Positions 7,734 through 16,421 of a stretch of DNA of 64,000 nt are shown here, one piece after another. This DNA comes from Escherichia coli. Its GTDB lineage: Bacteria; Pseudomonadota; Gammaproteobacteria; Enterobacterales; Enterobacteriaceae. The stretch lies in the NCBI RefSeq assembly GCF_036507355.1, contig NZ_AP027877.1, one strand, 5' to 3'. Every line of letters begins with the position of its first letter. The stretch's first letter is position 1. Position numbers and translations under genes: made by a program. The notes under the pieces are model-generated. The model made no database searches and was not told the DNA's origin. It was given only the letters and a program-made list of their open reading frames with translations.

Positions 7734-8362
7734 AGAATCCCCACGACTAAAGACCAGAATGTTTTTAGTTGCAAATACACCCTCAAATGCGCTCCATATT
7801 CCTTCTTTATCTATATATAATGCGTGGAATTCATTGTAGAGCTGCTGATAGGTAGAGCAACCTTTATTAAGCCACGCCCACCGCCGACACGCGTGGACCC
7901 ATCATCATTTTTAATCTCAGTCGTTGATTTTAATACCTGACCATCCCAGTAAACTAAAGGCCTGCTGAACGGGAGAGCGGCCATATATGCCATTGCTAAT
8001 TGTTCATCTTGTTGATGGTTAAATAGAAAGTCATTGAAAAGATTGCCATTGTTAGGAAAATCGTGGTTAATGTTAATCAATATCCGTCTTTCTGATGGGA
8101 TGCTTGAGATTGTGGAACCCGGTTTTGATGCAAGGGTTTGGAGATCGCCACCAAATGAAAAGGCTTTTATCGTCTTCATGAGCAATGAAAAATCAATGGC
8201 GCTTAAATCATCTCTTTCATAAAGTAGCGATGACATTTGTTGTTCATCCAACTGGCAAGTTACCAGATATTCCATGTAATTCATAACGGCTTTTTCATGA
8301 TATTTTGGGTGATGCTGCCAACTTACTGATTTAGTGTATGATGGTGTTTTTGAGGTGCTCCA

Positions 8363-8638
8363 GTGGCTTCTGTTTCTATCAGCTGTCCCTCCTGTTCAGC
8401 TACTGACGGGGTGGTGCGTAACGGCAAAAGCACCGCCGGACATCAGCGCTATCTCTGCTCTCACTGCCGTAAAACATGGCAACTGCAGTTCACTTACACC
8501 GCTTCTCAACCCGGTACGCACCAGAAAATCATTGATATGGCCATGAATGGCGTTGGATGCCGGGCAACAGCCCGCATTATGGGCGTTGGCCTCAACACGA
8601 TTTTACGTCACTTAAAAAACTCAGGCCGCAGTCGGTAA
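8363..8638 (+). CDS. insA: IS1 InsA (transposition inhibitor / N-terminal part of InsAB' transposase), 91 aa
   Basis: [40 protein letters not shown]... zinc-finger N-terminus. Confidence 0.95.
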
Positions 8639-9060
8639 CCTCGCGCATACAGCCGGGCAGTGACGTCATCGTCTGCGCGGAAATGGACGAACAGTGGGGC
8701 TATGTCGGGGCTAAATCGCGCCAGCGCTGGCTGTTTTACGCGTATGACAGGCTCCGGAAGACGGTTGTTGCGCACGTATTCGGTGAACGCACGATGGCGA
8801 CGCTGGGGCGTCTTATGAGCCTGCTGTCACCCTTTGACGTGGTGATATGGATGACGGATGGCTGGCCGCTGTATGAATCCCGCCTGAAGGGAAAGCTGCA
8901 CGTAATCAGCAAGCGATATACGCAGCGAATTGAGCGGCATAACCTGAATCTGAGGCAGCACCTGGCACGGCTGGGACGGAAGTCGCTGTCGTTCTCAAAA
9001 TCGGTGGAGCTGCATGACAAAGTCATCGGGCATTATCTGAACATAAAACACTATCAATAA
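8557..9060 (+). CDS. insB: IS1 InsB reading frame (expressed as InsAB' by -1 frameshift)
   Basis: ORF ...[26 protein letters not shown]... overlapping insA in -1 frame. Confidence 0.93.
8614..8620 (+). promoter_or_regulatory. IS1 programmed -1 ribosomal frameshift motif (AAAAAAC)
   Basis: A6C heptamer at the insA/insB overlap; identical motif at 15960-15966 in copy 2. Confidence 0.6.
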
Positions 9061-11047
9061 GTTGGAGTCATTACCATATTTTGGGTTAAATAAGTTAGTG
9101 TTGTGTAATCGCTCATTATAATTTTTAAGCGGTGGGGTTATTGATCTTTCTATTTGTTCATGTTTTGAGTGTTTTGCTGCATCATAACGTAAACCTCGTA
9201 CGCCATATTTTCGCATTTCACGAACGTATTGATTTTGCAGCATAATAACCTGGTCACTTTTGGGGGTTGTTTTAGGCATTCCATTTAAACGCTTTTCTTT
9301 TAATGCATGGAGGTTTTCCCATTCATCCTTAGAGATGTTATCTTTACTTGCTTCGAAGTCTTTTGCAGTGAGATGTATATCTTCTGGATGGATTTGTTTA
9401 CGTTCTTTTGTTACTGGATCGATAATAAATGGAACCAAAACCTGACCTTGCCAATAGCCAGGGATACCACCTTCTATATCTTTACTGATCTTCGCTCGTA
9501 TATCAGCAGAGGGATAATCCAGGTCATTTTTACCACTACCCCCGATTCCCATAAAGTTAAAGGTATAATCAGGAATGATATCGATACCAAATTTTTTAGC
9601 ATCTTTAACCAATGCGATAAAATCCTGCAAATCTCCCATTGGATTATGGATGGTACAAAGATCTTCGGGTTGATAAGCGTGAAACCAGTAACCTTTTTCT
9701 TCTTCGGGAGTTTCTGGTCCGTCGGCACGGAAAGTTGTCACTGGAGGGATTTGTATATACCCATAATGGCAACGTGCAAATTCAGACATATTTTCTCTGA
9801 TTTGCTGGTAGGTGGCATTAAAAGCATGAAGAATCGCTTCGCCAGGTTTTTTGGGGGTGATGATTTCACATTGTGATTTCTGAACAGCAGTAAGAGATTT
9901 ACGCTCAAGTGTTTGCCGTAGATGTTCTGGATTGATTAGTATTTTAAATGTTTCTTGCTGTCCGGAAGGTGACGTCACGTTAATATTATATACATCGGCT
10001 GCCAGCTCATAGTCAGGAATGTTAATAGCATATGCAACATATTTATCTTTTGGGGAGGGTTTGTCAGATATAATGTGGGTGAAATGTTCAGCAGGACCAT
10101 ACTGGTGAACCCCCTTGTTATCTTCTCTTTCATTCATTGTATCTCTTTGATAAATCCATGTTTTTCCTTCTCCTATCCTGTCTGGCGCTGTAATACTACG
10201 CTGTGCAGCTTTATTCAGTTCACGGTAAGTTGTATCTGGAAAAAGGGAAATTTTATAATCGTTTTTTAACAGATCATTAATGATTTTTTCTGCGTGAAAA
10301 GTTGATATAATTTCTCTGTCTTTTAAATCCTGAGGATAAACTCCACAAGCATTAATAATATTTGTTACACAGTTTAGATATTCTAATGTATTTAATTTGG
10401 AATTTAGATCCCCGTCAGTAATGTTCCATGATAACAATGTGGGGTTGTCGATAGGTAAATTTCTTGGTCCTGGTTTTATAGAAAACATAATAACGTTCCT
10501 CTAATGGTAGAGTAATATGATGTATACGGAGACATAAAAATGTTTAATTGTTGTGAAAGTAATTGCAAACAGATGTCCTATTTTTATCCAATATTTATAT
10601 GGAAAAGGATAATGCTTAAATCTGTTTTTTTAATTATCGATGTGGTCTGGAGAGGCAACTGTCAAAAATCGCTCATACGAAACTAATTATTAGCAGAATA
10701 AGTTCTATAAAAGAATATATTGCTATATGAAGTTTATTTTTATGGAGTGAAAAGTAACAGATATCATAATGATGCGAAAACTCTTCAGTTAATGTAATAA
10801 ACTTATATTATTAGATACAAAATCATTACAAAGTATCATTGAATCGATGATAACTATAGACAGTGTTAATTATTAACATTTGCTTGTTGACTGCGAGTAT
10901 CGACTTTGCGAATGGAGGCGATGTCGGGTTTTATGTCGCATGTATTGACGACCCAGGATGGATGAGAACGCATAAAAATCTGTTATTTACATCATAAGAT
11001 CATCATGTTTATTGCGTGGTTTATAAGTATTGTTATTGCATACTTAA

Positions 11048-11123
11048 GGCCCTTTAGCTCAGTGGTTAGAGCAGGCGACTCATAATCGCTTGGTCGCTGG
11101 TTCAAGTCCAGCAGGGGCCACCA
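11048..11123 (+). tRNA. ileY: tRNA-Ile2 (anticodon CAU, lysidine-modified class; ileY/ileX type), 76 nt including CCA
   Basis: ggccctttagctcagtggttagagcaggcgactCATaatcgcttggtcgctggttcaagtccagcaggggccacca; cloverleaf with 7-bp acceptor stem, anticodon loop cuCAUaa. Confidence 0.9.
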
Positions 11124-15653: not shown

Positions 15654-15708
15654 GGTGATGCTGCCAACTTACTGATTTAGTGTATGATGGTGTTTTTGAG
15701 GTGCTCCA

Positions 15709-15984
15709 GTGGCTTCTGTTTCTATCAGCTGTCCCTCCTGTTCAGCTACTGACGGGGTGGTGCGTAACGGCAAAAGCACCGCCGGACATCAGCGCTATCT
15801 CTGCTCTCACTGCCGTAAAACATGGCAACTGCAGTTCACTTACACCGCTTCTCAACCCGGTACGCACCAGAAAATCATTGATATGGCCATGAATGGCGTT
15901 GGATGCCGGGCAACAGCCCGCATTATGGGCGTTGGCCTCAACACGATTTTACGTCACTTAAAAAACTCAGGCCGCAGTCGGTAA
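15709..15984 (+). CDS. insA: IS1 InsA
   Basis: Protein identical to the InsA at 8363-8638. Confidence 0.95.
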
Positions 15985-16406
15985 CCTCGCGCATACAGCC
16001 GGGCAGTGACGTCATCGTCTGCGCGGAAATGGACGAACAGTGGGGCTATGTCGGGGCTAAATCGCGCCAGCGCTGGCTGTTTTACGCGTATGACAGGCTC
16101 CGGAAGACGGTTGTTGCGCACGTATTCGGTGAACGCACGATGGCGACGCTGGGGCGTCTTATGAGCCTGCTGTCACCCTTTGACGTGGTGATATGGATGA
16201 CGGATGGCTGGCCGCTGTATGAATCCCGCCTGAAGGGAAAGCTGCACGTAATCAGCAAGCGATATACGCAGCGAATTGAGCGGCATAACCTGAATCTGAG
16301 GCAGCACCTGGCACGGCTGGGACGGAAGTCGCTGTCGTTCTCAAAATCGGTGGAGCTGCATGACAAAGTCATCGGGCATTATCTGAACATAAAACACTAT
16401 CAATAA
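15903..16406 (+). CDS. insB: IS1 InsB reading frame
   Basis: Protein identical to the InsB at 8557-9060. Confidence 0.93.
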
Positions 16407-16421
16407 GTTGGAGTCATTACC

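Follow-up and report, generated by a model that had tools for sequence, protein, structure and literature searches.

Two identical, co-oriented IS1 copies enclose ileY and neighbouring native DNA in an Escherichia coli chromosome

Is the segment between two direct IS1 copies in a bacterial chromosome a unit that arrived as a whole, or is it native DNA that has become a substrate for deletion or amplification? This question is raised by a locus in the 64-kb window (the whole stretch of E. coli DNA that was analysed here), in which two IS1 copies enclose a tRNA gene of the ileY type, an intact 449-aa ORF, and several gene remnants (Table 1). The first-pass annotation of this DNA had proposed that the enclosed segment is a latent deletion or amplification unit. 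We consider it highly probable that the locus is a variable interval of an E. coli/Shigella-type chromosome, with the order glaH-ygaQ-ileY-ypjCB-pinH'-ypjA-(ssrA island)-ssrA, which IS1 has struck at least twice, leaving a direct-repeat substrate.

Table 1. Features at and around the IS1 pair, in window coordinates.
Feature	Position	Strand	Remarks
ygaQ 3' part	7461-8307	-	Outside the IS1 pair; collinear with the annotated 'alpha amylase C-terminal domain-containing protein' in MDK6L1 and ATCC 8739; weak Alpha-amylase_C match
Left target-duplication copy, ATATTTTG	8300-8307		Adjoins IS1 copy 1; octamer present once in empty sites
IS1 copy 1	8308-9075	+	768 bp; insA 8363-8638; insB' frame 8557-9060; A6C motif at 8614
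Right target-duplication copy, ATATTTTG	9076-9083		Adjoins IS1 copy 1
ygaQ 5' part	9076-10488	-	Inside the IS1 pair; weak Alpha-amylase match
ileY-type tRNA	11048-11123	+	Anticodon CAT; ARAGORN call Met-CAT; Rfam tRNA, 71.6 bits
ypjCB	11874-13223	+	Intact 449-aa ORF; DUF5507 + DUF5508; function unassigned
Resolvase/invertase-type recombinase internal fragment (pinH-like pseudogene)	13584-13751	+	Coordinates from the ATCC 8739 annotation 'recombinase family protein, incomplete'
ypjA 5' part	14159-15653	+	AIDA-type autotransporter adhesin, AIDA repeats; cut by IS1 copy 2
IS1 copy 2	15654-16421	+	768 bp; same sequence as copy 1; without target duplication; joins ypjA' to the island recombinase gene
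Serine recombinase gene, 5' 818 nt	16422-17239	-	Resolvase + Recombinase domains; truncated by IS1 copy 2; ssrA-integrated island
Tyrosine integrase of the ssrA island, 409 aa	17525-18751	-	Outside the IS1 pair
ssrA (tmRNA), island attachment site	18918-19280	-	Outside the IS1 pair

Results

The two copies are identical at 768 of 768 positions and both lie on the plus strand, in agreement with the first-pass annotation. The distance between them, which had been given as 6.6 kb, is 6,578 bp when measured between the inner ends (9076-15653), and the start-to-start spacing is 7346. The termini of these 768-bp elements are GGTGATGCTGCCAACTTACTGAT... and ...ATCAATAAGTTGGAGTCATTACC, and they match as inverted repeats at 21 of the 30 outer positions. 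The 91-aa ORF of insA contains the Pfam domains Zn_ribbon_InsA and HTH_Tnp_IS1, and the insB' frame (167 aa) contains DDE_Tnp_IS1 (2.3e-78). The AAAAAAC heptamer lies within the overlap of insA and insB' (8557-8638), and it is a putative A6C -1 frameshift site for the InsAB' transposase. Both copies are 100% identical to many elements annotated as IS1A in RefSeq. Thus, length, ends, domains, and the target duplication of copy 1, all read from the sequence, identify both copies as IS1. There is no further IS1 in the 64-kb window, as a 40-nt probe of the IS1 end gave two matches, with none expected from 100 shuffles. The pair therefore has the same orientation and the long, near-perfect homology that a deletion or amplification unit needs in its direct repeats, with 768 bp of perfect identity here, and the divergence that might have kept the copies from recombining, a concern raised in the earlier annotation, is absent.

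Copy 1 lies in ygaQ, an alpha-amylase-like pseudogene. Its flanks read ...CATG ATATTTTG / IS1 / ATATTTTG GGTTAAAT..., with an 8-bp duplication, and a single ATATTTTG is found at this site in the uninterrupted ygaQ of ATCC 8739 and MDK6L1. Because of this duplication and the empty sites in other E. coli, copy 1 is, as its flanks indicate, a simple insertion, which is what the flanking direct repeat had previously been taken to mean. The 5' part of ygaQ, inside the unit, runs exactly into the 3' part outside, across copy 1, and the ORF of the 5' part (8995-10488) reads on into the IS1. When IS1 and one copy of the duplication are removed in silico, the resulting ygaQ of 2252 nt is out of frame; the 3' part carries an additional frameshift or stop that is unrelated to IS1.

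The flanks of copy 2, ...CCCGGGCAG / IS1 / GAGGTTTTG..., are unlike each other, as had been noticed before. They have no sequence in common, and there is no target duplication. The left flank continues in ypjA of ATCC 8739, while the right flank continues inside a recombinase gene of MDK6L1, where the remnant aligns from position 13649, within the gene at 12910-14466. The absence of a target duplication at copy 2 is explained by its position between two sequences that lie apart elsewhere. The ypjA gene is 4581 nt at full length in ATCC 8739 and K-12; here, it is truncated after about 1.5 kb, with the loss of a 3' part of about 2.8 kb that includes the translocator. The intact island recombinase has 518 aa, and the intact island has the order int-recombinase(518 aa)-ParB-ParB-... 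in many genomes. Copy 2 is, judged from these junctions, the scar of an earlier IS1-associated deletion, which was absent from the first-pass account. The scar accounts for the missing duplication, and the deletion truncated the ypjA adhesin gene and took the far end of the ssrA island; since this end is lost, excision of the island is probably no longer possible. The literature describes IS copies that have no duplications, and also complex insertions with deletions.

We suggest two events to explain this arrangement. In event A, IS1 would have inserted in ypjA or in the island, and a deletion would then have formed; we infer that the route was either intramolecular transposition, giving an adjacent deletion, or a recombinational exchange with another IS1. 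The ypjA gene would have lost its 3' region, about 2.8 kb, and the island its distal portion, with the 3' part of the serine recombinase gene and all beyond it; a single IS1 would have been left, linking ypjA' to recombinase' without a target duplication. In event B, an IS1 of identical sequence would have transposed into ygaQ, making the 8-bp duplication. The two events could have occurred in either order, and the interval would have been struck by IS1 at least twice. IS1-promoted adjacent deletions, formed by intramolecular transposition, are a likeness for event A, in that copy 2 adjoins sequences which are apart elsewhere and has no target duplication. The structure of copy 2 fits such an adjacent deletion and the recombination of two earlier IS1 insertions alike.

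What is the nature of the DNA between the copies? All of the genes that had been listed there were found, namely, the 5' part of the split gene, ileY, the 449-aa ORF, the recombinase fragment, and the autotransporter fragment. The segment order glaH-ygaQ-ileY-ypjCB-pinH'-ypjA is the same in K-12, in ATCC 8739, and in many strains without IS1 there. On the evidence of this synteny with K-12, the enclosed DNA is native chromosome and was not imported as a transposon. The GC content of the segment is 38.6%, and the ygaQ-ileY-ypjA-ssrA-island interval is AT-rich (approximately 38-41% GC). The ceiling of identity with complete RefSeq E. coli genomes is 98.8% for the core and 98.1% for the inner segment, so that the chromosome probably belongs to a lineage not represented in this set, for example Shigella.

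The tRNA gene is identical at 75 of 76 positions to the tRNA-Ile gene of the RefSeq annotation at the syntenic ileY position of K-12 BW25113, between ygaQ and ypjCB. The acceptor stem of the copy here contains a U6-G67 wobble pair; C4-G69 and C5-G68 are also present and are putative determinants for TilS. The gene is assigned as ileY, for tRNA-Ile2, and the tRNA is predicted to decode AUA after lysidine modification of the CAU anticodon. A promoter scan around ileY gave 8 promoter-like sites, with 7.4 expected, which is chance level. Terminator-like sites around ileY are somewhat over chance (4, with 0.8 expected), and all of them are on the minus strand. An Rfam scan of 6000-20000 found no RNA beyond the tRNA and the tmRNA. 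ypjCB is intact here, whereas the annotations of K-12 and other compared genomes (five loci) list it as a pseudogene. The translation of the pinH-like fragment has 56 aa, and it differs by one residue from the ATCC 8739 fragment.

The locus was compared with 5,426 complete E. coli genomes. The exact deletion product, defined by both outer flanks no more than 900 bp apart with the flanks joined as one query, was found in 0/5,426, and there was no duplication product of this pair among them either. Queries of 300 bp of flank plus 300 bp of IS1 for the three IS1 junctions found none of them shared, with only nearby, non-identical IS1 insertions, and exact look-ups at the protein level, for YpjCB and for the three ORFs specific to the junctions, returned no record. 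In the species-representative genomes, exact-pattern scans for the copy 1 junction and for a lineage-specific 32-mer in ypjCB gave no match. By contrast, a joined query with longer flanks showed that, in at least nine complete E. coli genomes, one IS1 links ygaQ (the 3' remnant or just downstream) to the ssrA island, and ileY, ypjCB, and ypjA are gone. The first-pass annotation had pointed to related genomes as the place to look for the deletion state. Analogous single-IS1 states do exist there, but none has the window's own junctions or the exact product.

Four of the deletion genomes were checked in detail (strain 600, EC556, PSJ-23, and CP043852.1), and they have four different junction pairs; further strains in the single-IS1 deletion state include EC571 and EC581. 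The IS1 at the junctions checked is 93.4-99.7% identical to the IS1 of the window, and one is in the opposite orientation. Because the junction positions and the IS1 variants differ, the natural ileY deletions are independent events. They could equally have arisen by adjacent deletion from a single IS1 or by IS1 × IS1 recombination. CP043852.1, which is labelled ATCC 8739, was considered as a deletion derivative, on a laboratory timescale, of NC_010468.1 (ATCC 8739, with ileY), and this was rejected, as the ssrA islands differ. It has been reported that E. coli W and B lost ileY through separate IS-mediated deletions (Archer et al. 2011, PMC3032704).

Natural strains thus exist without the entire segment, and at least 80% of the inner segment is carried by 2,803 of the 5,426 genomes. 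This type of tRNA is present in at least one copy in 5,423 of them, with a median of 2 and many with 1. In the island recombinase gene, there are at least six different IS1 junction positions across E. coli. IS1-associated insertion and deletion recurs in the ygaQ-ileY-ypjA-ssrA-island interval across the species. These recurrent changes matter where ileY, ypjA, or the ssrA island serve as markers, and also for studies of IS-driven genome reduction.

Discussion

Could the 8.1-kb unit have arrived whole, as a Tn9-type composite transposon that brought ileY and the accessory genes with it? It has the build of one, since two complete, co-oriented IS1 copies with intact outer ends surround a passenger of low GC content. 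The outer flanks of the unit are alike at 7 of 9 positions (GATATTTTG and GAGGTTTTG). Composite transposition requires proximal IS pairs and is frequent for close IS1 copies, and IS1 target duplications are 8 or 9 bp (PMC12065110). However, the 8-bp duplication borders copy 1 alone and not the whole unit, for which the outer flanks are ATATTTTG and GAGGTTTT, and no foreign passenger is seen, as its genes are in the native order of K-12, ATCC 8739, and the many strains without IS1. Furthermore, ygaQ is continuous across copy 1 from the inside to the outside of the unit, and, on the right, the sequence next to the unit aligns collinearly with the island recombinase gene. Synteny and the position of the duplication rule out the composite-transposon origin, which we regard as almost certainly wrong. 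It might also be asked if one of the IS1 copies is an artefact of assembly, either through the double placement of one repeat or through a false join at copy 2. In favour of this, the copies show 100% identity, no duplication borders copy 2, and the junctions were not reproduced in any other genome or protein record searched. Nevertheless, assemblers do not create a genuine 8-bp duplication for which empty sites exist in other genomes, such as that of copy 1, and the sequence at each of the four junctions is unique. The flanks of copy 2 could not be adjacent even without copy 2, and a junction of this type (ypjA' or ygaQ' through IS1 to the island) recurs in the independently finished MDK6L1, FG92-1, strain 600, EC556, and PSJ-23. 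An artefact is thus very unlikely.

With a native interval and two IS1 copies that are very probably real, the remaining question is what the pair can do. Perfect 768-bp direct repeats 6,578 bp apart are a standard substrate for RecA-dependent recombination, and from the established behaviour of direct IS copies, ileY would be lost with the rest of the segment in this recombination. An exchange within the chromosome would excise 7,346 bp, made up of the segment and one IS1, and leave ygaQ 3' part-IS1-recombinase', while unequal sister-chromatid exchange would yield a tandem duplication, and then possibly amplification. In principle, the architecture could also move by transposition as a composite unit, in the manner of Tn9. 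Of the genes that a deletion would take, ileY and ypjCB alone are evidently intact. The loss of ileY would be tolerated in E. coli provided that another tRNA-Ile2 gene (ileX) is present; if there is no such second gene outside the window, the deletion would be lethal. In mutation-accumulation lines of E. coli, 98 deletions occurred via recombination between direct IS copies, and in 14 of these cases one identical deletion recurred, for which the two IS1A copies involved were separated by about 11.5 kb (Lee et al. 2016, PMC5009759). Amplification through the recombination of flanking IS copies has been termed common (PMC13423834). IS1-mediated deletion or duplication would here be an ordinary instance of a known, well-documented mechanism. 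The description of the segment as a latent deletion or amplification unit follows established IS biology and fits the analogous natural deletions, although its own deletion product is not among the 5,426 genomes. The main significance is for annotation, as this is one more IS1-flanked, potentially unstable segment.

The pair might be real and still be effectively inert, with two independent scars around a segment that is held by selection, for example, if ileY is the sole AUA-decoding tRNA, so that deletion products never persist. The lack of a deletion product with the window's junctions in any of the genomes compared would be expected in that case; furthermore, no second tRNA-Ile2 gene is verifiable within the window, and ypjCB is an intact ORF here, in contrast to the pseudogene of K-12 and other strains. 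However, many E. coli have one tRNA of this type and several are without the ileY locus, the segment is present in only about half of the complete genomes, and recombination between 768-bp perfect repeats happens regardless of the survival of the product (PMC5009759). We consider inertness distinctly improbable. A different role for selection would be to keep the two-IS1 state, not as a transient scar, but as a mobile or amplifiable dosage cassette for tRNA-Ile2 and the intact ypjCB. If this were true, tandem amplification or Tn9-like transposition of the unit would raise the number of ileY copies, with better translation of AT-rich, AUA-rich horizontally acquired genes; such a cassette seems to us extremely unlikely. 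We prefer the reading of a native, IS1-struck interval that has been left with a recombination substrate.

How does this locus compare with known systems? Tn9-type composite transposons have the same geometry, with complete co-oriented IS1 copies at both ends. Tn9 can lose its passenger to leave one IS1, amplify in tandem, and transpose as a unit. By contrast, the unit in the window was assembled in place on native DNA, and it has neither a target duplication at the level of the unit nor a selectable cargo. The argF segment of the cryptic K-12 prophage CP4-6 (about 11.5 kb, with two direct IS1A) is likewise dispensable chromosomal DNA enclosed by co-oriented IS1 copies, which are about 10 kb apart. 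Its deletion is the one that made up 14 of the 98 IS-IS recombination deletions in the mutation-accumulation lines, and it is fixed in NCM3722 (PMC5009759). The pair in the window differs in its location and in its cargo, which consists of a tRNA gene, ypjCB, and the remnants of other genes; one of its copies is itself an earlier deletion scar, and its deletion product is absent among the 5,426 genomes. Finally, E. coli B and W have lost ileY, as have strains 600, EC556/571/581, PSJ-23, CP043852.1, and others; this is the same outcome at the same locus as that predicted for the window, although it was reached with other junctions and IS1 variants, in strains not descended from the two-copy state seen here.

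The IS1 pair and the segment between the copies

Exactly two IS1 elements are present in the window, copy 1 within ygaQ and copy 2 between ypjA and the recombinase gene of the island integrated at ssrA (tmRNA). The first-pass annotation had described a co-oriented pair 6.6 kb apart with identical ORFs, and its coordinates all proved exact: the copies match at 768 of 768 positions and lie on the same strand, with 6,578 bp between them and 8,114 bp for the whole unit. Each copy has canonical IS1 ends, an insA ORF that encodes the zinc-ribbon and HTH domains of InsA, and an insB′ frame that overlaps insA and carries the IS1 DDE domain, with an AAAAAAC frameshift motif within the overlap. 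Many RefSeq-annotated IS1A elements of E. coli chromosomes and plasmids are 100% identical to this sequence. The pair around ileY is an ordinary, previously unreported example of a known structure type.

Features of the IS1-bracketed unit and its flanks (window positions)
Feature	Position	Strand	Remarks
ygaQ 3′ part	7461-8307	minus	
IS1 copy 1	8308-9075		
ygaQ 5′ part	9076-10488	minus	
tRNA (ileY)	11048-11123		
ypjCB	11874-13223		intact 449-aa ORF, DUF5507 + DUF5508
resolvase-type fragment	13584-13751		56 codons
ypjA 5′ part	14159-15653		AIDA-type autotransporter adhesin
IS1 copy 2	15654-16421		
island remnant	16422-19280		

The tRNA gene is called Met-CAT by ARAGORN and is confirmed as a tRNA by Rfam. 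It differs by one base from ileY of K-12 BW25113, a RefSeq tRNA-Ile at the same syntenic position, so that by orthology the earlier label, tRNA-Ile2, is right, and lysidine modification is predicted. In its acceptor stem, T6 faces G67 as a U-G wobble, compared with T6-A67 in K-12-type ileY; the wobble variant is found at 100% identity in 147 E. coli records, one O157:H7 strain included. An imperfect 26-nt inverted repeat (81% complementary) surrounds the gene, with arms at 10658-10683 and 11792-11817 and 1108 nt between them, and may be due to chance. The ypjCB gene, of unknown function, is uninterrupted in the window; in K-12 BW25113, ATCC 8739, MDK6L1, NCTC9080, and S3, internal stops make it a pseudogene in RefSeq. 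Dense private substitutions are seen in the ypjCB of the window at about 12100-12660.

Origin of the two insertions

Copy 1 is flanked on either side by ATATTTTG. At the empty site in the uninterrupted ygaQ of ATCC 8739 (NC_010468.1) and MDK6L1, the sequence reads ...TTATG ATATTTTG GGTTAAAT..., with the octamer present once, and both flanks of copy 1 overlap there on alignment. By its flanks, then, copy 1 arose by simple insertion of IS1 and made a target duplication of 8 bp, as had been expected from the direct repeat; IS1 is stated to duplicate 8-9 bp (PMC12065110), and the length seen here falls inside that range. The split gene, ygaQ, is alpha-amylase-like, and since it is read from the minus strand, the part enclosed by the pair is the 5′ one, as previously noted. 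When IS1 and one copy of the duplication were removed in silico, the restored ygaQ measured 2252 nt and was still not in frame: its stops begin at about codon 633, near the 3′ end. Judged from this reconstruction, ygaQ has a second lesion that is independent of IS1, and it was or became a pseudogene apart from copy 1. Most of the genomes examined have ygaQ annotated as a pseudogene.

The flanks of copy 2 do not match, as the first-pass annotation had stated, and they belong to different genes. On the left is ypjA; the ypjA of ATCC 8739 reads ...CCCGGGCAG up to this junction, continues as TTGACACG..., and runs about 2.8 kb further. The right flank aligns within a 518-aa serine-recombinase gene, at position 13649 of the MDK6L1 locus, and this gene adjoins the integrase of the ssrA-inserted island. 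Thus, copy 2 joins sequences that are not adjacent in other genomes, and the 3′ part of ypjA, the 3′ part of the recombinase gene, and the far end of the island are absent. A lone IS1 that lacks a duplication and joins such sequences is the scar to be expected either from an IS1-promoted adjacent deletion or from recombination between two prior IS1 insertions, and for copy 2 the data fit both. Elsewhere, the complete island has the order ssrA-int-recombinase-ParB-ParB, in many cases with a type I restriction-modification system after it. The remnant in the window retains the integrase and 818 nt from the start of the serine-recombinase gene, and nothing else of the island; it presumably cannot excise because its distal end is deleted. 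At 15590-15653, immediately upstream of the copy 2 junction and within the AIDA repeat region, the ypjA fragment is about 260 nt shorter than in ATCC 8739 and NCTC9080, a variation in repeat number.

Could the segment have been imported as a unit? Transposition of composite units is also seen for close IS1 pairs (PMC12065110), and the inner segment has a GC content of 38.6%, versus 50-56% in the flanking core. However, arrival as a composite transposon is ruled out by the usual chromosomal position of the segment and by ygaQ, which runs continuously across copy 1; these show that two IS1 events assembled the unit in place. K-12, ATCC 8739, MDK6L1, NCTC9080, S3, and FG92-1 all share the order gabD-lhgO-glaH-ygaQ-ileY-ypjCB-recombinase fragment-ypjA. 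The outer flanks of the unit, 8299-8307 (GATATTTTG) and 16422-16430 (GAGGTTTTG), are alike at 7 of 9 positions. A target duplication at the level of the unit is excluded by the synteny, and the likeness probably reflects the preference of IS1 for AT-rich targets, or chance.

Possible deletion of the ileY segment

Direct repeats that match perfectly over 768 bp and lie 6.6 kb from each other are a textbook recombination substrate. Recombination of direct IS copies produced 98 deletions in mutation-accumulation lines of E. coli, and 14 of these were one recurrent event involving two IS1A copies of CP4-6 that lie about 11.5 kb apart (PMC5009759). Recombination of flanking IS elements is described as a common route of amplification (PMC13423834). 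We infer that the ileY segment is, as had been proposed, a latent unit of deletion or amplification that recombination between the copies would remove; support comes from this established biology and from comparable natural deletions at the locus.

Neither the IS1 junctions of the window nor the exact single-IS1 deletion product of its pair was found in 5,426 complete E. coli genomes (0/5,426 for each). A search with longer flanks revealed the predicted type of product in at least nine complete E. coli genomes, which have a single IS1 between ygaQ (its 3′ remnant or just downstream) and the island and lack ileY, ypjCB, and ypjA. Such a comparison of genomes had been suggested by the first-pass annotation. 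Four of these genomes were verified.

IS1 junctions on MDK6L1 coordinates
Genome	ygaQ side	Island side	Remarks
this window	~4808	13649	two IS1 copies, segment retained
strain 600	5336	13366	
CP043852.1	5200	14187	
EC556	5653	13437	
PSJ-23	3867	13431	IS1 inverted

The junction IS1 in the four genomes has 93.4-99.7% identity to that of the window, so the deletions were independent events. For the natural deletions at this locus, adjacent deletion by a single IS1 could have been the route, instead of an intermediate with two copies like that of the window. Separate IS-mediated deletions also account for the absence of ileY from E. coli W and B (Archer et al. 2011, PMC3032704). At least one ileY-type tRNA is present in 5,423 of the 5,426 genomes (median two, one in many), and only 2,803 contain ≥80% of the inner segment. 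Together with the natural deletions, these counts indicate that loss of the segment is tolerated in the species. The best identity to these RefSeq genomes is ≤98.8% for the core (20000-44000) and ≤98.1% for the inner segment, so the window probably comes from an E. coli-like lineage unrepresented among them, perhaps Shigella.

Other observations at the locus

Compared with loci L001-L009 (L001 being that of MDK6L1), the ygaQ-ileY-ypjA-ssrA-island interval (7461-18751) is a repeated IS1 target in E. coli. IS1 junctions occur in the island serine-recombinase gene at six L001 positions (13058, 13366, 13431, 13437, 13649, which is that of the window, and 14187), in ypjA at least three times (window-equivalent 14360, 15400, and 15653), and in ygaQ at least four times, along with IS3 insertions. 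Either a preference for AT-rich targets or selection in favour of loss may be the cause. Two RefSeq assemblies labelled ATCC 8739 disagree here: ygaQ-ileY-ypjA is intact in NC_010468.1, where the ssrA island is P4-like, whereas NZ_CP043852.1 has ygaQ′-IS1-recombinase′-int with an integrase unlike that of NC_010468.1. A mix-up of strains may lie behind this, or a wrong label. An IS4 element lies at about 37900-39300, between raiA and bamD, a position common to several E. coli, such as GCUET01. Finally, four tandem 90-bp units at 1725-2084, with 69-100% mutual identity and many GCCGGATGCGGCG-type palindromes, look like REP/BIME elements.
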